From a virus (taxonomy: Duplodnaviria > Caudoviricetes): 39,470 bases of DNA. This document shows positions 26,342-39,470 of the stretch, in pieces. A model generated the notes under the pieces. It searched no databases and had not been told where the DNA came from. It saw nothing but the letters and a program-made list of their open reading frames with translations. How positions within the stretch are numbered: the first letter of the stretch is position 1; every line of letters starts with the position of its first letter. Both the position numbers and the translations under genes were made by a program. The stretch covers positions 1 through 39,470 of the IMG/VR virus record IMGVR_UViG_3300032286_000399. One strand, written 5' to 3'.

Positions 26342-26522
26342 CGTTCCTAGCCCTTGCATTAATATATGCAAGCTAGAAAATGGTGTTTGTAGTGGTTGCG
26401 GTAGATCTAAAAGAGATATAAAGAATTGGTCTCAGTATAACAACGAGACTAAGTATCAAATCGTTCACAAAATTAAGAAGAAAAAAGCATGGGAAAATTA
26501 CAAGCAGTCACAGATGGCATAG
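26331..26522 (+). CDS. DUF1289-like Cys-rich (predicted Fe-S) protein
   Basis: SPCINICKL...CSGCGR....I..W. Confidence 0.75.
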   Translation: MMNDVPSPCINICKLENGVCSGCGRSKRDIKNWSQYNNETKYQIVHKIKKKKAWENYKQSQMA

Positions 26523-26611
26523 TTGTATTAGCACTTGTCTATGCGCTTGGCAATCTAGGCCTTGGCGTGATTCTTGCTTATCAATGGATTCAATGTATCC
26601 CATACATGTAA
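26489..26611 (+). CDS. small hydrophobic protein (40 aa, not in ORF track)
   Basis: MGKLQAVTDGIVVLALVYALGNLGLGVILAYQWIQCIPYM; ends at the hairpin; RBS is weak. Confidence 0.4.
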   Translation: MGKLQAVTDGIVVLALVYALGNLGLGVILAYQWIQCIPYM

Positions 26612-26630
26612 AAGGGGCCGAAGCCCCTTG
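26610..26630 (-). terminator. intrinsic terminator downstream of pqqA
   Basis: Minus strand GGGGC-TTCG-GCCCC-TTTT (cUUCGg tetraloop); lies between convergent genes. Confidence 0.75.
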
Positions 26631-26658
26631 CACTAATAACAATCTGTAACAATAACCA

Positions 26659-26730
26659 TTATTTATTCATTACGTACATAGTTACTTCAAAGCCAAAACG
26701 CATTTCTGTTGCTGATGGAGTTGTCCACAT
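26659..26730 (-). CDS. pqqA: pyrroloquinoline quinone precursor peptide PqqA (23 aa, not in ORF track)
   Basis: Hand translation gives MWTTPSATEMRFGFEVTMYVMNK*. It has the MW.xP leader and the RFGFEVTMY core with ExxxY; RBS AAGGA lies 8 nt upstream. Confidence 0.97.
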   Translation of the reverse strand: MWTTPSATEMRFGFEVTMYVMNK

Positions 26731-26740
26731 AATATTTTCC

Positions 26741-26846
26741 TTTGTATATAAAAAAGATCTATTTTTGCTATACAAACACCTTTGTATGTAATTTACTCCA
26801 TACAAGCTAGTTTGTATGTATTATTATGCGCTTTTTGCTATACAAA
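26741..26846. promoter_or_regulatory. phased TTTGTAT/ATACAA repeat array upstream of pqqA
   Basis: TTTGTAT at 26741, 26781, 26811; TACAA at 26771, 26801, 26841; candidate -10 CATAAT on the minus strand at about 26823-26828. Confidence 0.6.
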
Positions 26847-26931
26847 ATACTCAGTAAAACCATGAATCAGGCCTAATTCTATATAACATTTAGTTATATA
26901 CAACTATTTCTATATAATTTTCATATATTAC

Positions 26932-26960
26932 TTGACACATATATATGGATTTGCTATATT
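26932..26960 (+). promoter_or_regulatory. sigma70-type promoter of the sRNA
   Basis: TTGACA-N17-TATATT with TGn extension. Confidence 0.75.
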
Positions 26961-26967
26961 TCTACTT

Positions 26968-27077
26968 GTGAGTCCCTTTCCTCACGCTCTTCCTTTATCT
27001 ACTCTCTCTGATAATGTGAAACCCTCGGTGTCCCTCGCACCTTAAAAACCCTTAGACTGATCATCTAGGGGTTTTTT
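26968..27077 (+). ncRNA. putative ~110-nt regulatory sRNA with C/U-rich loops
   Basis: Bounded by a promoter and a terminator, with no RBS-led ORF. Hairpins GTGAG-TCCCTTTC-CTCAC and GGTG-TCCCTCG-CACC. Confidence 0.65.
27044..27077 (+). terminator. intrinsic terminator of the sRNA
   Basis: AAAAACCCTTAGA-ctgatca-TCTAGGGGTTTTTT. Confidence 0.8.
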
Positions 27078-27088
27078 CTTTCTACCAC

Positions 27089-27117
27089 TTGCAAAAATTT
27101 CCAAACAGGCGTATATT
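27089..27117 (+). promoter_or_regulatory. sigma70-type promoter of the replication-module transcript
   Basis: TTGCAA-N17-TATATT directly after the sRNA terminator. Confidence 0.65.
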
Positions 27118-27146
27118 AATAAATGAGAGAAGTAAAAAGGAAGAGG

Positions 27147-27278
27147 ATGATGTATTTCTACGTCATTATCTTTTCCCTTTTATTTCATTCCGTACTCCAA
27201 ACGATATTAATGAGCCTACATGGGCTGCTTGGAAGAATACATAGTATCCTGTCTACACCCGCAGGCTCTACTGGATAG
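27147..27278 (+). CDS. possible 43-aa hydrophobic leader peptide
   Basis: AAGGAAGAGG then ATGATG; MMYFYVIIFSLLFHSVLQTILMSLHGLLG...; may instead be non-coding. Confidence 0.3.
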   Translation: MMYFYVIIFSLLFHSVLQTILMSLHGLLGRIHSILSTPAGSTG

Positions 27279-27457
27279 CGTTAAATGGCGACTATCATGT
27301 TAGCATAGGACTGGGGTGGTACTACCTACTATGCATGCTGAAGAACATTAACTCTGTGTAGGATTGGTATTGTGAGTGCTGGTATTCATGATATGGATCA
27401 AAGGTGGTTCCTACCACCCTAGGTATCCTATTGTCTAAAATTATAGAAAGGAAGCAT

Positions 27458-27631
27458 ATGGATTTTACCCACGCAGTAGTAGACGATGGCGATATCATCA
27501 GGAAATATCGTTGGTCTAAACGAGAGGCTAAGTGGTATAAAGATTCACATCCAAATATAGATGTGATAGAGTTACCTAAAGAACCAAAGAAAGAATTTAA
27601 TACTAACGACTACGAGGAGGCACCATATTAA
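27458..27631 (+). CDS. hypothetical protein
   Basis: RBS GAAAGGA before MDFTHAVVD. Confidence 0.7.
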   Translation: MDFTHAVVDDGDIIRKYRWSKREAKWYKDSHPNIDVIELPKEPKKEFNTNDYEEAPY

Positions 27632-27903
27632 TGGCAAAATATAAATTAGTAATGAAGGAACTAGACTTTAAGAACACGCTTGAATTTGAAGCTGATGGAT
27701 TAGAAGATGTGATAGCTAATATGGAAATCTTTTTAAAGGGTAATGGATTTTTCTTTGATGGAGCATTAGATATTCATGAGGGCGAAGTCCAAAAGAATGC
27801 TATGCACTATGTATGTAGACAAACAACCGATAGAGAATTTGATGATATCATTACTGATAGCGATCAACTAGACATGGAGTTTAAAGATGACTCAAGATTA
27901 TAA
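27631..27903 (+). CDS. hypothetical acidic protein
   Basis: RBS GAGGAGG; EFEA..L..V....E.FLKG.GF.F.G motif. Confidence 0.7.
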   Translation: MAKYKLVMKELDFKNTLEFEADGLEDVIANMEIFLKGNGFFFDGALDIHEGEVQKNAMHYVCRQTTDREFDDIITDSDQLDMEFKDDSRL

Positions 27904-28427: not shown

Positions 28428-28815
28428 TGCATGTGATCCACCCGCAAGAGAAGCAGTAATTAAATATATTAAAGATACATGGGGTTTAAATGCTTGGCAT
28501 AACCCAAACAAGTATGCAGTAGATTTAATTATTGAGCGGGATAAAGAGGCGATTGGGTATGCAGAGATAGAGATGAGAGATTGGGATCATTGCCCGTTCA
28601 AAACAATCCATATACCTAAACGAAAAGATAAACTATTTGATAACGATAGGGATACAATTTATTTTGTTGTGTCAAGAGGTATAACTAAAGCTTGGTATGT
28701 TAATTCACAGGTGATTAAAACTTCATCAGTGCATGAGATACCTAACAAAGCAGTTAGTCAAGGGGAATATTTTTATGATGTGCCTCTATACCTATTCACT
28801 GAAGTGAATTTGTAG
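28393..28815 (+). CDS. putative PD-(D/E)XK-fold endonuclease
   Basis: YAVDLII...GYAEIEMR; the start is uncertain (28369 or GTG at 28393). Confidence 0.45.
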   Translation: MKTKPFNQQVHDACDPPAREAVIKYIKDTWGLNAWHNPNKYAVDLIIERDKEAIGYAEIEMRDWDHCPFKTIHIPKRKDKLFDNDRDTIYFVVSRGITKAWYVNSQVIKTSSVHEIPNKAVSQGEYFYDVPLYLFTEVNL

Positions 28816-28828
28816 CATAGAATTATAA

Positions 28829-29128
28829 ATGAGAGATACCAATCCCGAATACACAGATTTAGAACATAGGATATTAGAACTATCTGATGTGATAGATATG
28901 TTGAATGAAGAGAATACACGATATAAAGATATCATTGCCTCTCAGCAATGGAATGCAACCGAGTTTGAAAAAGACTATATATTAAATGAGATCACTCAAC
29001 TAAGAAAAGATGTGGCAGTATTAGAGAAGAGTGAGGAAAGTGCAATAGCTAGTCGTGATATGTTTCAAAATAGGAATGCTGAACTACTAAGACAATTAGC
29101 GTATTACAAGAAGCTTACCAAAGCTTAG
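28829..29128 (+). CDS. hypothetical coiled-coil protein
   Basis: Heptad-like helical ORF. Confidence 0.65.
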   Translation: MRDTNPEYTDLEHRILELSDVIDMLNEENTRYKDIIASQQWNATEFEKDYILNEITQLRKDVAVLEKSEESAIASRDMFQNRNAELLRQLAYYKKLTKA

Positions 29129-29166: not shown

Positions 29167-30654
29167 ATGTTAGAACTACGAGAACACCAAAAAGGTGTCA
29201 TTGATGCATTGCGTCAGGGATTTAAAGATGGCCACAGATCACAACTACTATACGCACCCACAGGATTTGGCAAGACAGAAGTAGCTATTTATTTAATGGA
29301 GGCTACACGCAAGAAGGATAACAGATCAGCTATGATCTTAGATCGTATCGTATTAGTAGATCAAACATCACAACGGCTAGACAAGTATTCAATTTTTCAT
29401 GGTGTGCATCAAGCTGACCATTGGAAATATAATACATCAGAACTCATTCAGATATGCTCATCACAAACACTAGAACGCAGGCAAGACTTTCCCAAGATGG
29501 ATGTATTGATCATTGATGAGTGCCATATTACTAGGAAACAGATTAGCGAATTGATTCAGAAGAATCCTAAACTTAAAGTGATAGGATTGACTGCCACTCC
29601 ATTCACTAAGGGATTGGGTAATTTATATACTAATGTTGTATGCGGTGCAACGACTCAATCATTAGTGGTTAATAAATGGTTAGCCCCACTCAGAGTTTAT
29701 ATTGCTAAAGAGATTGACATGAAGGGCGCTAAGAAGATAGCGGGTGAATGGTCGCCTGATGTAGTTACAGAACGAGGCATGAGAATTACAGGTGATATCG
29801 TTCAAGAATGGATTAAGAAAACTCATGAAGTATTCGGCAGACCACGCAAGACTATCGTCTTCTGTGCGGGAGTTGCTCATGGCCAAGACTTAGTTAAGCA
29901 GTTTGCCGAGAAAGGATATAACTTTGTATCTATATCTTATAAAGAGACAAGTGAATTTAAGAAGGAAGTCATTGAAGATTTCAGTAGGCCTGATACAGAA
30001 ATACACGGATTGATTGCAACAGACATCTTAACTCGTGGCTTTGATGTGCCTGATGTTATGATTGGAGTATCAGCTAGACCATTCAGCAAGTCATTAAGTT
30101 CCCATATTCAACAGATGGGTAGAGTCATGCGCCCATGTCAAGATAAAGAGTTTGCCTTGTGGTTAGATCATTCAGGTAATTACCTACGCTTCCGTAATGA
30201 TTGGGAAGATGTATATCAAAAAGGTGTTGAAGAGTTAGATGAAAGCAAGGTAGAACACGCTCATAAAGAACCCACAGAACGAGAAAAGAAGGAAGCTAAG
30301 TGTCCATCATGCGAAGCGTTATGGGAGCATGGGGCAGAGGAATGTTATGCTTGTGGTTATCTCAGGAAGAAAAAGCAATTTGGCTCATTAGCGGGTGAGA
30401 TGCATGAATTAGGTATGAATGGTCGTGATGATGTAAGAGTCCGCCAACAATTCTTCTCAGAGTTATTATATGTAGCTAAGAATAAGAAGTATAGTCCTAA
30501 TTGGGCAAGCCATAAGTATCGTGAGAAGTATGGTGTATGGCCTAGAGATTTAGTATTTAGAACCGAGACTCCATCCATTGCCACAATGAATTGGATTAAA
30601 TCAAGAATGATTGCTTATAGTAGAGCAAATAAAAAAGATAGGAAAGTAGCATGA
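29167..30654 (+). CDS. superfamily 2 DExH helicase with C-terminal zinc finger
   Basis: APTGFGKT, IIDECH, GLTATP, TRGFDVP, QQMGRVMR, CPSC...CYAC. Confidence 0.93.
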   Translation: MLELREHQKGVIDALRQGFKDGHRSQLLYAPTGFGKTEVAIYLMEATRKKDNRSAMILDRIVLVDQTSQRLDKYSIFHGVHQADHWKYNTSELIQICSSQTLERRQDFPKMDVLIIDECHITRKQISELIQKNPKLKVIGLTATPFTKGLGNLYTNVVCGATTQSLVVNKWLAPLRVYIAKEIDMKGAKKIAGEWSPDVVTERGMRITGDIVQEWIKKTHEVFGRPRKTIVFCAGVAHGQDLVKQFAEKGYNFVSISYKETSEFKKEVIEDFSRPDTEIHGLIATDILTRGFDVPDVMIGVSARPFSKSLSSHIQQMGRVMRPCQDKEFALWLDHSGNYLRFRNDWEDVYQKGVEELDESKVEHAHKEPTEREKKEAKCPSCEALWEHGAEECYACGYLRKKKQFGSLAGEMHELGMNGRDDVRVRQQFFSELLYVAKNKKYSPNWASHKYREKYGVWPRDLVFRTETPSIATMNWIKSRMIAYSRANKKDRKVA

Positions 30655-31484
30655 GATTTGAAGACTTTGCAAGGATACATGGTTTAATTATTGATAGTGT
30701 CATACCACATAGACAAGTAAGAACCCCGACAGAAGATCACCCAAGAAGTAATAACGGATCGTATAAGTTTCTAGGTGATGTAGGTTTTGTAATGAATTGG
30801 GCTACGATGGAAGAGCCAGCAGTATGGTTTCCCGATAAGAAAACCGCCTCAAGCGCAGTAATTAAAAAGAGTTCCGTAGATCACGCTAAAGAGCGTGAAC
30901 GCCTAGCTAAGAAGGCTAGTGATAAAGCGGGGTGGATAATGCACCAATGCAAACAAGAAACCCATCCATACTTAGCTTCTAAAGGCTTCCCAGATGAGCT
31001 AGGGAACGTCTGGACAAAGGATAATGAGCGCATCTTAGTTATACCCATGCGGATCGACAAACGACTTGCGGGGTGTCAACTCATCGATGACAAGGGGGTC
31101 AAGAAGTTCCTGTATGGACAAACGACTAAGGGGGCAAGTCTTACCATGAATGCAAAGGGACTCCCCATCTTTTGCGAAGGGTATGCGACTGCCCTTAGCG
31201 TCAGAGAAGCCATGATCTTCAATAACATCAAGTATTCTATTCACGTCTGTTTCAGCGCATCCAATATGAAGTTCGTAGCAGGGCAGTTCCCCTATGGACT
31301 CATCATTGCCGATAACGATAATTCCCATGTTGGTGAGATTTCCGCTAGGAAAACAGGCAAGCCTTACTGGCTCTCTCCCGCAGTCTCCGAAGATTTTAAT
31401 GATTTTCATAAACGAGTAGGCACATTTAAGGCCTCTCAATCCCTTAAAAAGAAGTTAATAGAGATAGGTAGCTTGGTGTTCTAA
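30651..31484 (+). CDS. Toprim-domain primase-like protein
   Basis: HPYL..KG, LVIPM, QLI...G.KKFL.G, CEGYATALS, IIADND, DFND. Confidence 0.85.
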   Translation: MRFEDFARIHGLIIDSVIPHRQVRTPTEDHPRSNNGSYKFLGDVGFVMNWATMEEPAVWFPDKKTASSAVIKKSSVDHAKERERLAKKASDKAGWIMHQCKQETHPYLASKGFPDELGNVWTKDNERILVIPMRIDKRLAGCQLIDDKGVKKFLYGQTTKGASLTMNAKGLPIFCEGYATALSVREAMIFNNIKYSIHVCFSASNMKFVAGQFPYGLIIADNDNSHVGEISARKTGKPYWLSPAVSEDFNDFHKRVGTFKASQSLKKKLIEIGSLVF

Positions 31485-31880: not shown

Positions 31881-31982
31881 AAATTTTCCTCTTTGTTATT
31901 ATGGAATGCACAGAGTATCAGTATTATCAAGGGTTTCAAAGCATACAGCGTCATAAATGTATGCTATAATTAGCCTTATGGC

Positions 31983-32171
31983 CTACCCTTTTTCCTTAAA
32001 ATCAGCAATTAAAACTACCAATTCATACTCTTTACTAAATTCTTTAATTGGGGCTTTAGTCCATAAGTAAGTTGTAGCGTATTTATAAATGCTTGTTCCG
32101 CTCTTCTTCTTCACCTTATAGGCTTGGCACTTAAAAAACTCCGCCCCCTTTAAAGCCTGTTGCTCAGTCAT
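31983..32171 (-). CDS. hypothetical early protein
   Basis: RBS GAGG; coupled to the upstream gene. Confidence 0.6.
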   Translation of the reverse strand: MTEQQALKGAEFFKCQAYKVKKKSGTSIYKYATTYLWTKAPIKEFSKEYELVVLIADFKEKG

Positions 32172-32391
32172 TTTTAACCTCTACAATGCGAAAATCTTCA
32201 CGATCAGGCACATCTGCCAAATAATTGTCATCAACGGCAGTTTGGCAGTCTTCTAAAAACATATCTAACTCTTCTTTTGCCACCTCATACTTTTCATATG
32301 TAGTAGATATGGTATTTCCGTCATCATCTTCATAAGACCATGTATTAGTCCAACCGCCACATAAACACCATTCTTGAATTTCGTAAGCCAT
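32164..32391 (-). CDS. hypothetical acidic early protein
   Basis: YEIQ....GGWTNTW motif; RBS AGGT. Confidence 0.65.
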   Translation of the reverse strand: MAYEIQEWCLCGGWTNTWSYEDDDGNTISTTYEKYEVAKEELDMFLEDCQTAVDDNYLADVPDREDFRIVEVKND

Positions 32392-32392
32392 T

Positions 32393-32578
32393 TTAAAACC
32401 TACCTTTCAATGAATATAATGCCGATAATCTTTCTTTAGAATTTAGGATAGGTATCTCATTATCCTTATCGTTTTCTGCGATCATTTCCTCTTGAAATCC
32501 CTTTTCAAAGTTTATTGCATCACTAATAGCTATGTATAATATCTTTTCTTCAAAGTCATTCAGTTCCAAGTTCATCAT
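32393..32578 (-). CDS. hypothetical early protein
   Basis: RBS GAGGAGG precedes MMNLEL. Confidence 0.6.
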   Translation of the reverse strand: MMNLELNDFEEKILYIAISDAINFEKGFQEEMIAENDKDNEIPILNSKERLSALYSLKGRF

Positions 32579-32690
32579 CTTCCTCCTCATCTACCATAAA
32601 ATTGATTGTTCTTAGGCCATCATATATTTCCATAACCTCAAATTTAACATCTAGCTTATTTAACTCTTCATATAGTTCCATTGGTGTCAT
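32556..32690 (-). CDS. hypothetical early protein (44 aa, not in ORF track)
   Basis: RBS GAGGGG; MTPMELYEELNKLDVKFEV... Confidence 0.6.
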   Translation of the reverse strand: MTPMELYEELNKLDVKFEVMEIYDGLRTINFMVDEEEDDELGTE

Positions 32691-32893
32691 ATATACCCCT
32701 CTTGTTTAGATTGTTTAAACATCATGGCTTGATATCTTGCCACGAATAATAAATAGTTCATTTCACTCTCTACCTTAAAAAAATTATTTGCATCTAATTT
32801 ATACCTAAACCAATGGTGTTTATCTTTATCATCTATTACTAACCAAGCATACCGCTTAAAAGGTGCATAGTATTTTATATATCGCATTATCAT
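32687..32893 (-). CDS. hypothetical early protein
   Basis: RBS AGGAGG. Confidence 0.55.
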   Translation of the reverse strand: MIMRYIKYYAPFKRYAWLVIDDKDKHHWFRYKLDANNFFKVESEMNYLLFVARYQAMMFKQSKQEGYI

Positions 32894-32904
32894 TACATTG
32901 CCTC

Positions 32905-33096
32905 CTAGTGTGAATTAGTATTGGCTTCTTGATCGGAAGCCCATTGATCTGTGCAATTATCAAACCTTCTCATGCACTCCTCTGCAATAGCAGTCATAAG
33001 TTTAAGATAGTCATCACCTTCAACTCCTTCAATCTCATCTGCATCTTGCATGGCCTCTAATACATTCTTATATATTGCTAATGCTCTGTTGTTCAT
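32905..33096 (-). CDS. hypothetical early protein
   Basis: RBS AAGGGG before MNNRALAI (start trimmed from the track). Confidence 0.6.
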   Translation of the reverse strand: MNNRALAIYKNVLEAMQDADEIEGVEGDDYLKLMTAIAEECMRRFDNCTDQWASDQEANTNSH

Positions 33097-33382
33097 TATT
33101 TTCCCCTTTAAAGTAAAATTCATATTCTTCCCAAAACTCTTCTGCACTATTGATCTGAATATAATCACTATGAGTTTCGTTGTAATTATCTTGCGTTGCC
33201 CATACAATTTTAAAGCCCAAGTCGAAAAAATCACCATCTTCCTCAGGATCATAATCGGTATCATAGTTCATATCCTCAACCTTGCCCCAACCATCACTTC
33301 TAAACCATTCGAAAGCATTTTGATCTGCCATAGCTTGTGCTAAAGCATAAGCATTGGCTTCTGTTATTTGCTTACTCATCAT
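33068..33382 (-). CDS. hypothetical acidic early protein
   Basis: RBS GAGGAGG before MMSKQ. Confidence 0.6.
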   Translation of the reverse strand: MMSKQITEANAYALAQAMADQNAFEWFRSDGWGKVEDMNYDTDYDPEEDGDFFDLGFKIVWATQDNYNETHSDYIQINSAEEFWEEYEFYFKGENNEQQSISNI

Positions 33383-33581
33383 CTTCCTCCTCATCTTGCA
33401 TTTTTAAATAATGCTCATACTCTTCTGTAAGTTCCTCATCAGTATAATTGTTGTATCCTTTTCTGCCATTAAGAAGCATATCTCTTATACAATCATCATT
33501 CTCTCCCATAGACATACTAGACACTCCATTCATATCATCTTCTAATAATTCAGATATTACTTGTTTTCTATTCATCACCAT
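33372..33581 (-). CDS. hypothetical acidic early protein
   Basis: RBS GAGGAG; G.KGYNNYTDEEL.EEY. Confidence 0.65.
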   Translation of the reverse strand: MVMNRKQVISELLEDDMNGVSSMSMGENDDCIRDMLLNGRKGYNNYTDEELTEEYEHYLKMQDEEEDDE

Positions 33582-33738
33582 ACTCCTCTATTTTATAAAC
33601 ATTAAAATGATCGCTATCACAAGGTTCTAATTGACTTGCTACATCATAAAACTTTTCCATAGCTTCATCTCTAGTTTCAGCTTCAATTTCTTCTTGGTAA
33701 TACACTTCCTCACTTGCTTTAATTATAAATCTAGGCAT
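33568..33738 (-). CDS. DpnD/PcfM-like small protein (56 aa, not in ORF track)
   Basis: MPRFIIKASEEVYYQEEIEAETRDEAMEKF; RBS GAGGAGG. Confidence 0.6.
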   Translation of the reverse strand: MPRFIIKASEEVYYQEEIEAETRDEAMEKFYDVASQLEPCDSDHFNVYKIEEYGDE

Positions 33739-33904
33739 TTTCTACCTCCTCAACTGATAATATTTCAAAGTTTACATCTTCAACTGCAACCCAATCGTTT
33801 AGATCAATACCATTAGATATGCTTTCTGCCTCTGCCTCGTTTTCTGCATCAACATCAATTTCATATAAAGTAGTGACCTCTGCGGTAATCGTATATTTTT
33901 TCAT
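33731..33904 (-). CDS. DpnD/PcfM-like small protein (57 aa, not in ORF track)
   Basis: MKKYTITAEVTTLYEIDVDAENEAEAES; RBS AGGGG. Confidence 0.6.
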   Translation of the reverse strand: MKKYTITAEVTTLYEIDVDAENEAEAESISNGIDLNDWVAVEDVNFEILSVEEVENA

Positions 33905-34068
33905 TGTTGGCTTTCCCCTATAAATGTTATATCTGCATCTCTGATATCAGAAGGTTCTAAATCGCTATATAACTCCCAAAACTTTTCACTAGCCTCATCA
34001 CGATCTTGAGCCTCCACCATTGTTTTATAAACATGGGTTTCCCTTGCTTCAATCAAAAACTTCTTCAT
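33901..34068 (-). CDS. DpnD/PcfM-like small protein (55 aa, not in ORF track)
   Basis: MKKFLIEARETHVYKTMVEAQDRDEASEKF; RBS GAAAGGG. Confidence 0.6.
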   Translation of the reverse strand: MKKFLIEARETHVYKTMVEAQDRDEASEKFWELYSDLEPSDIRDADITFIGESQQ

Positions 34069-34139
34069 AATTAACCCTTTCTAGTTAAGATTATCAAATG
34101 ATAATCAGATAGCACCCATAAGGCGCTATCGGGTATCAC
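34069..34139 (-). repeat. intergenic double-hairpin element, diverged copy
   Basis: GATAGCGCC-ttatg-GGTGCTATC followed by GATTATCA-T-TTGATAATC and RBS GAAAGGG. Confidence 0.55.
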
Positions 34140-34406
34140 TTAAATAACAGGAATAACATCTAAATCATCATCAGATGTAAATAAAGCGCCTCCGTCATTA
34201 CCTTCATCATCTTTTTGCGGTATTATGTATGAGCCATCAGTAAATTTAATAATGACAGGCTTTTTATACCACATAAAGTCCTCCATCTCTTCATGGGTCA
34301 TATATCTAACTGATTTAATAGTCTTGCCTACTAAGAAATCACTAACCTTTCTATTCCATACATCAGCGATCTCTAAATCATATTTTTTTCTCTCTTGCGG
34401 TGTCAT
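34140..34406 (-). CDS. hypothetical early protein
   Basis: LVGKTIKSVRYM...P..DDEGNDGGALF; RBS GAGGAGG. Confidence 0.7.
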   Translation of the reverse strand: MTPQERKKYDLEIADVWNRKVSDFLVGKTIKSVRYMTHEEMEDFMWYKKPVIIKFTDGSYIIPQKDDEGNDGGALFTSDDDLDVIPVI

Positions 34407-34582
34407 CTTACTTCCTCCTCGATATTGTCTTTATAAAATCTTTCTACTGCTTCAATGGATTGATTAGCCCAACCTACCCAACCATCTCTAATAATCCACT
34501 CCATATCATCACGCTCAGCACCACTTTGAAGCCAATCAGTTTCGAATTTAACACAAGCCTCTCTCTTTTCATCTATTGTCAT
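34403..34582 (-). CDS. hypothetical early protein (59 aa, not in ORF track)
   Basis: MTIDEKREAC...; RBS AGGAGG; weakly resembles 33372-33581. Confidence 0.6.
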   Translation of the reverse strand: MTIDEKREACVKFETDWLQSGAERDDMEWIIRDGWVGWANQSIEAVERFYKDNIEEEVR

Positions 34583-34755
34583 ATTGCCTCCTGTTCGTTT
34601 ATATAACTTTCCATATTCACAATAGTGACATTTTCTTTACCCTCTGCAAAAAGTTCACTAGCCATTTTGAAAGCCTTTTCTTGTGTTAAGTAATAGGCAT
34701 TGACTTCCATATCCGCCATTTCTTCTTCACAATAAACACTATATCTATCGCTCAT
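34579..34755 (-). CDS. hypothetical early protein (58 aa, not in ORF track)
   Basis: MSDRYSVYCEEE...; RBS AGGAGG. Confidence 0.6.
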   Translation of the reverse strand: MSDRYSVYCEEEMADMEVNAYYLTQEKAFKMASELFAEGKENVTIVNMESYINEQEAI

Positions 34756-34943
34756 ATTGCCTCCTGTTTATCAAGTTTAAATTTGTATGCAAAGTCATCA
34801 CTTGCAGAGTAGTTTTTAATCATACCATGACCTAAGTTTTGAATAATGCTTTCCAATGCCTCGCCTAATGAATTCCCATCATCACAAGTAATAACGATTT
34901 CACACTTCCAACCATCGCCCTTTACTAAATCTATATCTTTCAT
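34752..34943 (-). CDS. hypothetical early protein
   Basis: RBS GAGGGGG; coupled. Confidence 0.6.
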   Translation of the reverse strand: MKDIDLVKGDGWKCEIVITCDDGNSLGEALESIIQNLGHGMIKNYSASDDFAYKFKLDKQEAI

Positions 34944-35095
34944 ATTGCCCCCTCTGTTTGTTTAACATCACTATGTTGTTTGCGCCAAGCCTTAACCAAT
35001 GAATAACGCATGGCCTCTCTTAAAGTTCTTGGTGTCTGCCATTGATAATAATTGTATCTAAAGAAGTGCTTTGCTTTGTCTTGATCTGTTTTCAT
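34940..35095 (-). CDS. hypothetical early protein
   Basis: RBS GAGGGA before MKTDQDK; PRTLREA motif. Confidence 0.55.
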   Translation of the reverse strand: MKTDQDKAKHFFRYNYYQWQTPRTLREAMRYSLVKAWRKQHSDVKQTEGAI

Positions 35096-35103
35096 ATGTC
35101 CCT

Positions 35104-35544
35104 CTACCATGATGATTGATAATAAAAATCCCAATTACCTTTGATATCCTCATCAGAGATAAGCTTTTCTAAAGCGGGTATTGTTCGTTTAACTTGATCT
35201 AATTCCCATTCTATGCCATCAGCATCATCAGCTTGAAGCGGTAATATGTCCTCAGCTAATGACGGATTTTTATCTACCTTTTTTAAGGTGTCCAATAGAT
35301 TTCCTAATAAATCCCTCGAAACCCAATACTCCTTACAATTATCCTCGCCATCTTGAGCATTCATAACAAACCAATGATGAATAGCCCAAGCCTTGCGCCA
35401 ATAAAACGCTTCCTTTCTTACTTCATTGGTATTGCCCAATGACGCACCGCCTATCATTTCATCAATCTTATCGGCCAATGCCTTGTCATGCTCATTAAAA
35501 CTAAACAAATATCGTTTAGCTGATAAATACATATCTAAACCCAT
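35104..35544 (-). CDS. conserved phage protein of unknown function
   Basis: MGLDMYL...YWRKA.AIH.WFV...DNC...YYQSSW. Confidence 0.75.
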   Translation of the reverse strand: MGLDMYLSAKRYLFSFNEHDKALADKIDEMIGGASLGNTNEVRKEAFYWRKAWAIHHWFVMNAQDGEDNCKEYWVSRDLLGNLLDTLKKVDKNPSLAEDILPLQADDADGIEWELDQVKRTIPALEKLISDEDIKGNWDFYYQSSW

Positions 35545-35620
35545 GATGTTCCCCTTTTCTAGTTAATAAAACATAAAACCGCCTCATGCGCAGTAATGAC
35601 GCAAAATTTTATATGCGCCC

Positions 35621-35785
35621 CTACTTATCCCATAAAGCGATAATCTCACCTGATTTAATCAAATCAGCAATCCACAGGCCAAAATCTGTTGACTTATAAA
35701 AAGCATTAAAGCCCTTATCCTCATGCCTGTTTTTCTGAAAGCGATCAACCAAATCATAATAATACACTTGTTCTAATTTTTCCAT
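35621..35785 (-). CDS. hypothetical early protein (54 aa, not in ORF track)
   Basis: MEKLEQVYYY...; RBS GAGG. Confidence 0.55.
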   Translation of the reverse strand: MEKLEQVYYYDLVDRFQKNRHEDKGFNAFYKSTDFGLWIADLIKSGEIIALWDK

Positions 35786-35787
35786 AA

Positions 35788-35964
35788 TTAAGCCTCAGGG
35801 TGCTTATGTTCCCATGCACCTTTTCCCAAGTTAATTAATGTTTGCGCCTCTTGTGGATATAAGCCATGATGTTCTGCAAATTTATCAATAGTTAAATAGT
35901 CATTCCTATAATCTAAATATGCGTCAATCAGAATATCCCTTAATTCCCTATTCCATGTAATCAT
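35788..35964 (-). CDS. hypothetical early protein (58 aa, not in ORF track)
   Basis: YLDY.NDYLTIDKFAEHHGL; RBS GAAAGGGA. Confidence 0.65.
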   Translation of the reverse strand: MITWNRELRDILIDAYLDYRNDYLTIDKFAEHHGLYPQEAQTLINLGKGAWEHKHPEA

Positions 35965-36032
35965 ATTATCCCTTTCATATTGGCCAAAAATAGCCCCTTA
36001 AAGCCCCGTTAAAGAGGCTTTAAAAGATATTT
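35965..36032 (-). repeat. intergenic double-hairpin element
   Basis: AAATA-TCTTTTAAAGCC...GGCTTTAAGGGG-C-TATTT then RBS GAAAGGG. Confidence 0.7.
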
Positions 36033-36551
36033 CTAGTGATAGCTATCAATCATACTCATAGCGTCTTTAATTGCCTCATCTCTTTCACCTAAATAGCCCG
36101 ATTGGCTATCGACTACTTCGCCATCATTATCAATAATAACCGCCATGTAAGTATCGCCTCTTAGATAATAGTCATAAACTTTAACCTCATTTTCTAATAG
36201 TTCATAGGGTTTAGTTATGCCATTCTTTTCTGCGTCTTGTTTGGTGATATAAATAAAGCCTAATTGACCGCTATCCCAACGACATGAAAAAGCGCTTGTG
36301 GATATCGTGATATTGCCATGCTCATACATATAAACAGGCAAATAATAGATATCGTCTTTATTATCCTCAATCCATTCTAATAATGCCTCAGGGTCATCAA
36401 ATCTATGTTCATCACCTAAGTTATAGCGCTTGTGATAAAAAGCCATTGTGCCGAGATTATCCCATGCTTTTCTAGGGTCATCTGGATATGTGTCATAACA
36501 TAATTCAATGTTATAGTTTTTATATTCTATTGTTTCTATAATGTCATTCAT
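36033..36551 (-). CDS. conserved phage protein of unknown function
   Basis: PR..WDNLGTM...H.RY.LGD...LPVYMYEHG...CRWDSGQLGFIY. Confidence 0.75.
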   Translation of the reverse strand: MNDIIETIEYKNYNIELCYDTYPDDPRKAWDNLGTMAFYHKRYNLGDEHRFDDPEALLEWIEDNKDDIYYLPVYMYEHGNITISTSAFSCRWDSGQLGFIYITKQDAEKNGITKPYELLENEVKVYDYYLRGDTYMAVIIDNDGEVVDSQSGYLGERDEAIKDAMSMIDSYH

Positions 36552-36864
36552 GTAAAGCCCCTCTCATTATGGTTAATTGATCTGTGATATCTTGATACAT
36601 TCCCGTCATGTAATTACTTCCTAAATCTTTTAAATCCGCCTCAAGTTCTTTAATATACTCAGGAACAGGGATAATTTCAACATTCCATAAATCCTGAATA
36701 AATTCAAGCGTAAAATTTTCAAGCGGTATAGGCTCATCACCGCCTAAATCCTCATAGTCGCTAATTGTTTTAAAATGCTCTTTAATTTCCGCCTCATTCG
36801 GTGGATTATCAAAAGACCATTCGCAGAAATTCCCGCATTCATTGTCTTTTATAATATATTTCAT
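36544..36864 (-). CDS. hypothetical acidic early protein
   Basis: RBS AAGGG. Confidence 0.65.
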   Translation of the reverse strand: MKYIIKDNECGNFCEWSFDNPPNEAEIKEHFKTISDYEDLGGDEPIPLENFTLEFIQDLWNVEIIPVPEYIKELEADLKDLGSNYMTGMYQDITDQLTIMRGALHE

Positions 36865-36866
36865 CT

Positions 36867-37076
36867 TTAAACCCTTTCCCTTAGTTTTAAAATGATATCT
36901 CTTGTTATTTCTCTATCTGCGGTATCGCCTTGAAATTCAAAATCCTTTCTAGTTTCAAGCCTTAAGCGTATGCCTTGCTGAATTTCATCATCTGAGAAAT
37001 CATAGTCATAAATACCGCCTGAACCATAAAAAGATTTTATATAATCGTGAAAACCTTTGAATAGATTGTTAGTCAT
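36867..37076 (-). CDS. hypothetical early protein
   Basis: F.DY..SFYG.GGIY...F.GD..DRE..RD motif. Confidence 0.65.
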   Translation of the reverse strand: MTNNLFKGFHDYIKSFYGSGGIYDYDFSDDEIQQGIRLRLETRKDFEFQGDTADREITRDIILKLRERV

Positions 37077-37233
37077 CTGAATACCTCTCTTTTAAAATGT
37101 CTTTGATTAATTCCGCCTCATGCTCGGTAATGCTAAGCCAATTCGTGTGCGCCCCTTCGGCCTGAATTTTCAGGCTTATAGCCTCGCCTTTGGTTTCGAA
37201 TATCTTATTAAATTTTTGGTCGATATAATCCAT
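37069..37233 (-). CDS. hypothetical early protein (54 aa, not in ORF track)
   Basis: MDYIDQKF...TNWLSIT; RBS GAGAGGG. Confidence 0.6.
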   Translation of the reverse strand: MDYIDQKFNKIFETKGEAISLKIQAEGAHTNWLSITEHEAELIKDILKERYSDD

Positions 37234-37306
37234 TTTTAACCCTCTCAATTAAATAGGCCTAATTTAAGCCCCTAAGCGCCCTATAAAAAGGCGCTTAAAG
37301 ATTAAA
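37234..37306 (-). repeat. intergenic double-hairpin element
   Basis: TTTAA-TCTTTAAGCGCC...GGCGCTTAGGGG-C-TTAAA; close match to 38584-38655. Confidence 0.8.
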
Positions 37307-37765
37307 CTAAGCGTTTAATGGTTCTATTTGATTGTAAGCCTTCATTCTTTCGATATTCTCTAAATAATGCGCATAGTCTATCAGTAGAATATAGTCTAAA
37401 TCAGCTAATAATTGAAAATCGAAAATATGCCAAGCCTCAACAATGCGATGCTCATAATTTTCTACTAAGGCTTGAGCCTGAATACATGATTTTTTTATGT
37501 GTAGAGTATCTTTGATTGTGTATCGGTTCGGCTTAATGAGCGCCTCTGCGATATGTTTAACGACAAAAAGCCTAGCACAATCGGCCATTGGTGTTTCATA
37601 CTCTCGAACCTCGCCCCCGAAAGCCTTGCGGTGTTGCTTTTCGTCTTTTAAATTCATGTTGAAAAGTTCGTCCCTGTAGGCCGTCCAGTTAATGTTATTT
37701 AAAGTTTGTAATTTTATATAAGCGCTATTTACTAAATTAATCGTGTCTTTTTGGTGTTTATTCAT
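37307..37765 (-). CDS. hypothetical early protein
   Basis: 152 aa; RBS AAGGGG. Confidence 0.7.
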   Translation of the reverse strand: MNKHQKDTINLVNSAYIKLQTLNNINWTAYRDELFNMNLKDEKQHRKAFGGEVREYETPMADCARLFVVKHIAEALIKPNRYTIKDTLHIKKSCIQAQALVENYEHRIVEAWHIFDFQLLADLDYILLIDYAHYLENIERMKAYNQIEPLNA

Positions 37766-37941
37766 TTTGTAGCCCCTTTTTGTTGTTTTTTCATTTTTAA
37801 TACTATTTCACAAGCCTGAAGCCTCAAATTTTCATCATCTGAATTTAAGAAGCCACCTAAAATTTTTAATGCTTTTCTCATGTTTCTTAATTCCCAGTCA
37901 GGCCTACGGGATAGATTGGCAATATATTCTTGAAGCGTCAT
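37762..37941 (-). CDS. hypothetical early protein (59 aa, not in ORF track)
   Basis: WELRNMRKALKIL..LN...EN.RL.A; RBS GAGAGGG. Confidence 0.6.
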   Translation of the reverse strand: MTLQEYIANLSRRPDWELRNMRKALKILGGFLNSDDENLRLQACEIVLKMKKQQKGATK

Positions 37942-37943
37942 TT

Positions 37944-38114
37944 TTAAGCCCTCTCAACCGAAAAAACATCAAAGCCTTGAGGCTTGATGTCATGATCGAA
38001 AGGCCAAGCGCCCGCCTCGATACGCTTTAACGCTTCGGCTTCGGCTTCGGTCTTAGAATTTGCGAATAGATGAAACTCATCATTCAAAATTAAAGTTATT
38101 TTAAATCTAGTCAT
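37944..38114 (-). CDS. small early protein, weakly DpnD/PcfM-like (56 aa, not in ORF track)
   Basis: MTRFKITLIL....ANSKTEAEAEA; RBS AAAGGG. Confidence 0.5.
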   Translation of the reverse strand: MTRFKITLILNDEFHLFANSKTEAEAEALKRIEAGAWPFDHDIKPQGFDVFSVERA

Positions 38115-38319
38115 TATTAAGCCCTTTCGATGTTGAAGCCTCTGAGATTAAAGAGGCCATTCTATGACAAAACCAATTATCGATGATCTTTGAAGCGTCA
38201 TCTAATGGAATATTGAATTCTGAAACGATCATTTCAGGCGTCACTCTCAAGCCCTCATCTAGCGACCTATCAAGCGACCTCATTATCCAATCTTTTTTAA
38301 ATTCTGTCTGTTCATTCAT
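38107..38319 (-). CDS. hypothetical early protein
   Basis: RBS AAGGGG. Confidence 0.6.
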   Translation of the reverse strand: MNEQTEFKKDWIMRSLDRSLDEGLRVTPEMIVSEFNIPLDDASKIIDNWFCHRMASLISEASTSKGLNND

Positions 38320-38464
38320 AAGAAGCCCCTTTGATAGCTAAAAAAGCATAAGCCCCCGCCACAATAAAGCATAATAGCGAAGCGAAAAGGCCTATAAACT
38401 CTAAAGAATATAAGCCTAATATGGATAGAAGCGTAGATTGTAAAGCCCTTATTAATTCATACAT
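38312..38464 (-). CDS. small two-helix membrane protein
   Basis: RBS GAGGAGG before MYELIRAL; hydrophobic throughout. Confidence 0.6.
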   Translation of the reverse strand: MYELIRALQSTLLSILGLYSLEFIGLFASLLCFIVAGAYAFLAIKGASYE

Positions 38465-38466
38465 GG

Positions 38467-38583
38467 TTAAGCCTCCTCGATCTGAATGACCGCATGAATA
38501 ATGCGGGTAATTCTTGCTAGATAAGAGGCATAAGCACAAGCCTCGTTTAAACTCTCGAACCTGAAATTATTGCATTCATACAT
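38467..38583 (-). CDS. hypothetical early protein (38 aa, not in ORF track)
   Basis: MYECNNFRFESLNEACAYA; RBS GAAAGGG. Confidence 0.55.
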   Translation of the reverse strand: MYECNNFRFESLNEACAYASYLARITRIIHAVIQIEEA

Positions 38584-38655
38584 AATGAACCCTTTCATTA
38601 ATTAGGCTTAAATTAAGCCCCTGAGCGCCCTAAGATAAGGCGCTCAAAGATTAAT
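38584..38655 (-). repeat. intergenic double-hairpin element
   Basis: ATTAA-TCTTTGAGCGCC...GGCGCTCAGGGG-C-TTAAT then RBS GAAAGGG. Confidence 0.8.
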
Positions 38656-38832
38656 CTAATAACCCTCGCTATAATCCTCAAGGCTTGACACTAGCCCGTC
38701 AAAATCCTCAACGCTTCCAAGTAAAGAAGCAAGGGAAAAAACGATATCCTTTTCAATTCCCATATCAAGCGCCAAATTTTCCAAATAATCTCTTCTATTT
38801 TTATAACCATTCATAGCGTAAACATTATCCAT
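38656..38832 (-). CDS. first early gene, conserved small phage protein (58 aa, not in ORF track)
   Basis: NGY.NR.DYL..LA...G.....V..LA..LG..EDFDGLV..LED; RBS GAAGGG. Confidence 0.7.
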   Translation of the reverse strand: MDNVYAMNGYKNRRDYLENLALDMGIEKDIVFSLASLLGSVEDFDGLVSSLEDYSEGY

Positions 38833-38899
38833 TTTTTAACCCTTCCATATTGTTATTGATATAACAGGCCGAAACCCGTTAAAAAGTATTAGATCAAAG

Positions 38900-38929
38900 A
38901 TTATAAAAGAATGCAAGTTATTTATACAA
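38900..38929 (-). promoter_or_regulatory. putative early promoter
   Basis: Minus strand TTGTAT-N18-TATAAT upstream of the early operon. Confidence 0.5.
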
Positions 38930-39174
38930 TTATTTTCACTGACCCAATCCGCCCCAATAAAGCGCATGGATAGCGAAGCGAAAAAGCCCCGCATATGCTC
39001 AAATGTCAGTAGAGCGTATAGTAAAGCATATAGAAGCAATAGCATAATTGTCTAATAGGATAACATTAACCGATAAGAGATCGTGTCATATGATGCGATT
39101 GTGAAGGTCAATAATTAGCTATTATCTTAAATTTATCTTATAATAAGCATATTCTCATTAAATACCCATTCACT

Positions 39175-39470
39175 ATGAAGCTAACCCGTAAACAGATTAA
39201 AGAAGGCCTCGAAGCGAACCCGATTGACACTCTACTATTGGGAAGCCCTAAGACATTGACCCATAAACAAAAAGCCTTTGCGGAAGCATTAGCGCTCACA
39301 GGTAATAAGGCGGAAGCATACCGCCAAGCCTATGACACTCACTCAAGCCCTAACATTCAAAGCCTCGAAGGCCAACGCTTAGCAAAAAACCCTATTATCG
39401 CTCTACAGGTAGAGGCTATAAAACTATCATTAGAGGCGCAAAAATATCTTTTACCCGCTCATTTAAGGGC
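39175..39470 (+). CDS. terS: terminase small subunit (3' truncated, not in ORF track)
   Basis: MKLTRKQIKEGL...LTHKQKAFAEALALTGNKAEAYRQAY...LAKNP.I; open to the window end. Confidence 0.8.
   Translation, partial: MKLTRKQIKEGLEANPIDTLLLGSPKTLTHKQKAFAEALALTGNKAEAYRQAYDTHSSPNIQSLEGQRLAKNPIIALQVEAIKLSLEAQKYLLPAHLR

Follow-up and report, generated by a model that had tools for sequence, protein, structure and literature searches.

What would a predicted small RNA encoded ahead of the replication genes of a phage control? The window, a stretch of 39,470 nt, is the 39.5-kb record of an uncultured freshwater phage (63% complete), in which virion genes on the left are followed by exonuclease, Erf and HNH genes, then by a region holding a predicted small RNA (sRNA) and a large structured RNA, and finally by the helicase and primase genes. 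A first-pass annotation had proposed for this region either an antisense RNA switch gating the replication genes or a type I toxin-antitoxin module. The features that bear on the choice are the following.

26932-26960, plus strand: P1, sigma70-type promoter of the sRNA with an extended −10 (11 of 12 consensus matches plus TG; conserved in the alignment)
26966-27079, plus strand: predicted sRNA of ~113 nt (from sequence, alignment and fold)
26967-26986, plus strand: sRNA hairpin 1
26987-27008, plus strand: antisense linker of the sRNA, its hypervariable specificity seed (from pairing and covariation)
27027-27041, plus strand: sRNA hairpin 2
27044-27076, plus strand: sRNA terminator (13 pairs)
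27089-27117, plus strand: P2, promoter of the target transcript (9 of 12 consensus matches; conserved in the alignment)
27123-27190, plus strand: leader hairpin of the P2 transcript (z = −6.5), whose 5' arm, 27125-27145, is the sRNA target
27147-27278, plus strand: 43-codon open reading frame (ORF), judged incidental (not conserved)

The tandem sigma70-like promoters described in the first-pass annotation are both present, and an alignment of 11 sequences shows conservation of their −35 elements (TTGACA and TTG), of the −10 positions and likewise of the terminator; promoter-like matches by themselves occur at chance level in the window (11 found, 12.3 expected). Its RNA of ~110 nt with a strong terminator likewise held up, with a predicted length of ~113 nt, 13 terminator pairs and a fold z score of −5.6 relative to shuffles. 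A further candidate locus for such an sRNA, L491, was rejected as a chance match to hairpin 1.

The linker of the sRNA is complementary to the 5' end of the second transcript exactly as had been reported, with 10 + 3 + 6 bp and a duplex energy of −23.8 kcal/mol. Nowhere else in the window does the linker find as good a site, its own antisense strand aside, and the P2 5' end is its best partner among 112 promoter-like 5' ends. Compared with shuffled controls, as the annotation had suggested, the duplex goes beyond composition but just moderately so, as 1.0% of 5000 dinucleotide shuffles were as good. We call the pairing firm because linker and target covary across phages, and not on account of the window duplex alone.

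Relatives were gathered via the helicase (58 loci) and via two DNA patterns (119 and 103 loci). The two-promoter layout of the window was found at 37 loci, 28 by pattern and 9 set by hand. Loci with less than 330 nt upstream were left out of the pairing set, as was L018, where another kind of gate follows the second promoter, and removal of near-identical targets left 29 non-redundant loci, the window included. Across these, the mean duplex energy was −28.5 kcal/mol for cognate and −18.4 kcal/mol (sd 4.3) for non-cognate combinations, a comparison slightly biased toward the cognate since at pattern-found loci the best-pairing promoter pair was picked; with linkers cut at fixed offsets, the energies were −26.9 and −15.3 kcal/mol. 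The cognate duplex ranked best in 19 of 29 rows and 22 of 29 columns, and none of 100,000 permutations was as good. Even within the close clade, cognate pairing was stronger (−27.0 versus −21.0 kcal/mol; cognate best in 8 of 11), and between nearest neighbors the cognate sum won in all 14 pairs, once by just 0.1. The covariation between sRNA and leader that the annotation had named as a check is thus found.

This cognate preference is restricted to the first 35 nt of the leader; across the 29 loci it is absent for the leader's 3' arm, for the large RNA and for the downstream ribosome-binding site. A second linker target at the first downstream ribosome-binding site was rejected for want of covariation. 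The duplex begins 5 to 11 nt past the −10 box at all 29 loci. Linker and target are also the most variable parts of the locus, with identities among 10 close relatives of 0.59 and 0.49, compared with 1.0 for hairpin 1 and 0.77 for the large RNA. Two loci break the rule: at L236 the cognate ranks 17th of 29, and L207 has the target of L203, yet pairs at −22.7 versus −34.1. Recombination, escape or chimeric assembly may explain these mismatched leaders.

Could such a match have arisen without any function, simply from an inverted duplication of local sequence or from purine/pyrimidine bias? The pyrimidine-rich linker does pair with many purine-rich stretches, as the non-cognate mean above illustrates. 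However, the pairing is imperfect, differs from phage to phage and has been kept through independent changes, and the linker resembles the 3' arm of its own hairpin hardly more than foreign ones (23.1 versus 21.9). We find this explanation barely credible and consider, on the strength of the comparison across phages, that the trans-antisense pairing between sRNA and leader is very probably real.

The long leader hairpin holding the target as its 5' arm is present as described, and its stem ends directly before the large RNA (median gap 0 nt over 29 loci). A hydrophobic peptide of 43 amino acids had been read from this leader, and in a type I toxin-antitoxin module it would be the toxin silenced by the sRNA. 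The ORF exists, its product has a hydrophobic N terminus, and the duplex in the window covers a Shine-Dalgarno (SD)-like stretch before its ATGATG. It is not conserved, however: an SD-led start occurs in only 15 of 29 leaders, distributed over the three frames as 9/3/3 and opening 2 to 55 codons, and frameshifts separate close relatives (in L086 and L006 the frame differs from that of the window). Neither Pfam nor PHROG matched the peptide, and its hydrophobic codons are probably a by-product of the U-rich 3' arm. Of the earlier claim, the ORF itself stands, while the toxin-antitoxin module does not, and we regard the latter as extremely improbable. As an aside, the leader of L238 keeps an SD and a six-codon ORF whose first residues are those of the ParB-like gene of its relatives, suggesting that this leader may have arisen from a duplicated 5' end of that gene.

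The second transcript had been described as leading into the helicase/primase genes. It first passes a structured RNA of ~245 nt, and a separate promoter-like site, P3, precedes the helicase and primase.

27191-27432, plus strand: ~245-nt structured RNA, candidate replication-origin RNA (covariation, several pseudoknots)
27196-99/27230-33, 27218-22/27240-42 and 27282-86/27347-50, plus strand: crossing helices of the large RNA
27315-19/27414-18, plus strand: long-range helix of the large RNA
28795-28823, plus strand: P3, promoter-like site directly before the helicase/primase genes (conserved in close relatives)
28829-29128, plus strand: gene for a 99-aa protein, the first gene of the predicted P3 transcript, leaderless at its AUG
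29167-30654, plus strand: DNA helicase gene
30651-31484, plus strand: DNA primase (Toprim) gene

The large RNA was found by profile in 242 of 281 loci, which exposes an uncatalogued, highly covarying RNA at 178 distinct phage loci. Mutual information recovered both nested and crossing helices (56 sequences, under ~90% identity). Two-sided changes were seen at 38 of 53 pairs, and 96.5% of cells were paired versus 32-41% in slid controls, which flatter the structure somewhat, as it was drawn from the same alignment on which it was scored. Near-invariant U-G pairs on the plus strand favor an element acting as RNA rather than as single-stranded DNA. No Rfam family reached its gathering score in the window, only chance hits appeared in 26500-27700 at E up to 10, and nothing was found in 20 related loci at E 0.05; no covariance model of any family matched the large RNA. 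Our literature search, outside which lay the supplement of PMC5737381 and the alignment archives of PMC10690425, found no description of the module, and four supplementary files of PMC10690425 gave no motif hits; the large RNA may be among the candidates of that study. Both the trans-antisense gate and the large RNA are previously uncatalogued.

Since the helicase and primase have a predicted promoter of their own, the large RNA is more likely the gated object than the helicase/primase mRNA. The proposed RNA-RNA switch on the replication genes therefore survives as a covarying switch, with its likelier object shifted to the large RNA. Nevertheless, the sRNA could possibly co-repress the replication proteins as well, through the P3 end: the first 8-9 bases of the predicted P3 and P2 transcripts are identical, at L132 the corresponding end is all that a similar sRNA evidently has for a partner, and in one clade (L020-22, L046, L048 and L051) duplexes of the P3 5' end with the linker reach −19 to −28 kcal/mol. 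This pairing is weak in the window (−11.8 kcal/mol) and absent in L011 and L012. It might even be argued that the sRNA is mainly a general anti-SD regulator of phage or host mRNAs acting through its C/U-rich loops. Besides the P3 pairing, such a role could draw on the loops of both hairpins, which are C-rich in most of the 29 loci and do not vary among members of the close clade. Against it, these loops have no cognate preference for sequences in cis (p = 0.61 and 0.31), the linker covaries with the first 35 nt of the leader only, and the P3 pairing is weak in the window and lacking in L011 and L012. We consider a general anti-SD role highly unlikely.

How, then, might pairing act on the large RNA? 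From sequence and comparison we infer that both predicted RNAs are expressed, and we see an even chance that the sRNA inhibits a large RNA that would start phage DNA replication. The first step of this mechanism is seen in the comparison, where linker and target change together, phage by phage. The second is computed: the sRNA is predicted to bind the nascent 5' arm strongly and the closed hairpin weakly, with net energies of −20.9 and −4.1 kcal/mol in the window and of −19.8 and −4.8 kcal/mol on average over 29 loci; the decision would therefore fall during transcription. Third, when the sRNA is absent the hairpin would close and insulate the large RNA, which would fold, whereas a bound sRNA would free the pyrimidine-rich 3' arm, so that the large RNA would misfold, terminate or decay. 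In predicted folds of the large RNA, which ignore pseudoknots, blocking the target made the freed arm pair more into the large RNA at 28 of 29 loci and lowered the agreement with the free fold at 21 of 29 (0.87 with the hairpin closed versus 0.66 with the sRNA bound). A fixed site within the large RNA that the freed arm would invade was looked for and rejected, as no conserved partner appeared at the 29 loci. In the window, binding leaves the large RNA with the same minimum-energy fold, which counts against this mechanism. Because there is no conserved invasion site and the window fold is unchanged, misfolding, Rho-type termination and decay are all possible.

Alternatively, the sRNA might be an activator, opening a hairpin that must be opened for the active large RNA to be processed or released. 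The pairing data carry no sign of the effect, and IsrK activates in trans according to the available part of one account (PMC4825925). On the other hand, the predicted fold of the large RNA is intact under the closed hairpin and disturbed in the bound state, most loci would make the large RNA without such an sRNA, and a private, fast-changing seed would fit a brake better; activation thus appears quite unlikely.

In the inhibitory mechanism, the fourth step is suggested by gene order: the large RNA would replace an initiator gene and origin, much like ColE1 RNA II, and the phage helicase and primase expressed from P3 would take over. Fifth, the hypervariable seed would make the brake specific to the phage that produces it, limiting copy number and excluding identical superinfecting phages but not relatives.

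The gates found upstream of the large RNA in other phages speak to a different possibility. By a crude pattern, 142 large-RNA loci with enough flank divide into 37 with the trans gate, 93 with a terminator-like T run and 12 with neither. In attenuation resembling P4 CI or P1 c4, the sRNA would end the P2 transcript early and thereby control the early genes behind it, and the large RNA would be an antiterminator or an mRNA leader, comparable to put of HK022. The T run lying right before the large RNA at those 93 loci fits this idea, as does the freed leader arm, which like Rho sites is rich in C and U and poor in G. Similar terminator gates also precede protein genes. At L132, a ParB-like gene preceded by a third promoter has a ribosome-binding site and start that match the linker of a similar sRNA. 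Attenuation is less easily reconciled with genes behind the large RNA that vary freely, with a helicase and primase that are preceded by their own conserved promoter-like site, and with the mutual exclusion of the large RNA and DUF1376 genes described below, which an antiterminator role would leave unexplained. We judge it unlikely, though far from negligible.

The terminator-type leaders deserve attention in their own right. At L211, L250, L120, L199 and ~90 other loci, the 150 nt upstream of the large RNA hold a single-promoter leader with a 5' hairpin and a variable segment complementary to the loops of a terminator-bearing cloverleaf. Their anatomy is c4/CI-like without an Rfam match, and their loops appear by eye to covary. 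Similar sRNAs also occur beside terminator-type gates at L018 (3690-3790), with no partner seen, and at L132 (911-1480).

Does the large RNA stand in for an initiator? The commonest protein behind it in terminator-gate phages has 115-127 residues and matches only the C-terminal part of replication-initiator families; its 80 nearest relatives are all short. Among 70 loci of this short protein with more than 1 kb upstream, 30 have the large RNA, 27 the Rfam motif Betaproteobacteria-1, none both and 13 neither. One of these 13 is record G016, in which L395 carries cro, a terminator gate and, behind it, a DUF1376 gene; the promoter sequence there is that found before the large RNA in several other phages. 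The DUF1376 gene of this record has iteron-like repeats and is accompanied by a loader-like gene; DUF1376 proteins, listed as unknown in Pfam, we take to be lambda-O-like initiators. Neither RNA was present at any of 80 DUF1376 loci within up to 3 kb, and a DUF1376 gene occurred in 1 of 50 records (G016) and in none of 32 picked for the large RNA or its pattern. Upstream DNA is common to DUF1376 and large-RNA loci in 11 of 75 cases, three of them by 22 nt only. The large RNA, the Betaproteobacteria-1 RNA and the DUF1376 gene thus occupy the same slot, and never co-occurred in the loci examined.

It is tempting to speculate that in non-integrating freshwater phages a multi-pseudoknot RNA as large as a ribozyme has replaced initiator and iteron origin, that it opens the origin or primes it and is licensed by a separate antisense RNA with a hypervariable seed as its private address, which would amount to RNA-only copy control and to self/non-self exclusion when phages co-infect, and that the large RNA is one of several interchangeable origin RNAs, Betaproteobacteria-1 among them. 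We hold this fuller reading tentatively, at somewhat below an even chance. No initiator of the families tested was found in the window, itself 63% complete, nor among 69 of the 79 ORFs of a complete relative, the ten presumed counterparts of window genes having been left out. Several observations count against an origin. Slot exchange was observed in phages of ~35 kb with terminator gates, another group than the window's own clade, whose genomes span 63-66 kb and in which the only sign is the missing initiator in the complete relative. In L317 (G016) the short initiator-like protein occurs together with the DUF1376 gene and is thus not simply the partner of the large RNA. None of three RNA types was seen at 15 of the 46 helicase loci that offered 2.6 kb or more upstream, and codon skew gave no origin signal. 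A repeated tag, a possible R-loop anchor, covaries in about two events and has three counter-examples.

Other RNAs occur in this slot. The Betaproteobacteria-1 RNA was found there at L030 (4614-4734) and at L316, L323, L324, L326, L330, L337, L341, L346, L355, L362 and L372, and its conserved sequence extends ~70 nt past the 3' end of the Rfam model. Unrelated long non-coding stretches behind terminator gates, which are candidate additional RNA families, were seen at L025 (4637-4900) and L029 (4702-4962), at L351 and L383, at L358 and L373, and at L396.

How does the module relate to known systems? In c4/CI systems a small ORF of the icd/kil type lies behind the target, and unlike there, no conserved icd/kil-like ORF follows the phage target. 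P4 CI and P1/P7 c4 are phage RNAs that control replication or lytic genes and in which small differences bring about heteroimmunity, as the available parts of the sources describe (PMC4825925, PMC8198154, PMC6906374). The predicted phage sRNA resembles them in its partial complementarity in trans and its cognate-specific pairing, here computed. In contrast to CI, which by these partial accounts is released by processing of the very transcript under its control and has targets upstream as well as downstream, the phage sRNA has its own promoter and terminator and one covarying target (leader nt 1-35), with the P3 site in some clades. Rfam C4-type and isrK models did not match the sRNA locus, and by eye it is the terminator-type gates of the other large-RNA phages that look closer to CI/c4. 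The earlier analogy to c4/CI is apt for the mode of action but not as a family assignment.

ColE1 provides a close parallel for an RNA-started origin: RNA I, an inhibitor of ~110 nt, binds the 5' end of RNA II during synthesis and alters its fold, according to the available text of PMC5043065. The predicted sRNA likewise would pair with a longer non-coding transcript at its 5' end, and no initiator protein was found among the families tested. Unlike RNA I, which the same text describes as a fully complementary opposite-strand transcript of RNA II, the phage sRNA has a gene of its own, located upstream on the same strand, and its imperfect pairing covers ~20 nt; seed and target must therefore co-evolve. 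The phage further differs in having its own helicase and primase and no plasmid sequence match, and its primer role is putative. The MRB plasmid origin, too, has two RNAs and no Rep gene, its small RNA setting specificity among close relatives; in the available part of that account, its RNAs overlap on opposite strands and interact by loop kissing (PMC3035462), whereas the phage has tandem genes and a single-stranded linker. Related extrachromosomal mycobacterial prophages are described, in the text available, as having an initiator protein in some cases and a non-coding RNA in others at one and the same position (PMC7157519), much as the phages related to the window have protein or RNA in one slot. 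However, those prophages are temperate and carry parABS, with no paired antisense gene described in the text available, whereas ParA was absent here from 27 records. Finally, ARRPOF, GEBRO and PAGEV are structured RNAs tied to replication regions in the part of the source available (PMC5737381); together with Betaproteobacteria-1 (RF02932) they span 223-349 nt, comparable to the ~245 nt of the large RNA, which differs in matching no Rfam covariance model. The module belongs to none of the c4/CI, ColE1/MRB and type I toxin-antitoxin families.

If the large RNA is an origin, the range of RNA-started replication under trans-antisense control would grow beyond plasmids and a few mycobacterial prophages and take in a widespread group of phages from the environment. 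Such control would also account for how phages that lack a repressor and an integrase might hold back their own replication or keep out kin. Replication initiation would be a testable function for both the large RNA and the orphan motif Betaproteobacteria-1. The at least 29 matched seeds of sRNA and target form a natural library in which specificity can be tested by swaps and which could be reused as orthogonal RNA switches. As for the biological purpose of the brake, integrase and S24 repressor were absent from 15 records examined and ParA and resolvase from 27, and phages of this group look non-integrating. Because of this, the brake may serve to set the timing or the upper limit of replication, to maintain a carrier state or to keep kin out; the same absences give no sign of a resident state in which immunity matters.

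Searches for the host and for further relatives gave the following picture. A scan of GTDB with the pattern returned 29 matches, none with the full large RNA and one with part of it (L305), and no host prophage was found. No plasmid sequence gave a match, and GenBank phages matched nothing beyond the pqqA stretch and, in an uncultured record, one part of the large RNA. In public reads, seven runs with small shares, all contigs and mostly probable DNA, cover pqqA or large-RNA parts in relatives. One feature just upstream of the sRNA region points to a host:

26659-26730, minus strand: pqqA, gene for the 23-residue PqqA precursor peptide (Pfam PF08042, E 1e-10)

Because of this gene and the match of its stretch to Methylophilales phages in the GenBank phage search, the host is likely a methylotroph, and pqqA itself is likely an auxiliary metabolic gene. 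Upstream of pqqA, an imperfect 30-nt repeat with TATACAAA/TTTGTAT half-sites in inverted orientation occurs three times in 26741-26860, and two 25-nt repeats lie before P1 at 26873-26928; both sets are possible regulator binding sites. At the other end of the window, the minus strand of 31900-39470 has few recognizable genes and long gaps, with a PHROG match for one of nine ORFs scanned. Another observation was that L044, a helicase-related phage locus, carries two tRNA genes at 1105-1288.
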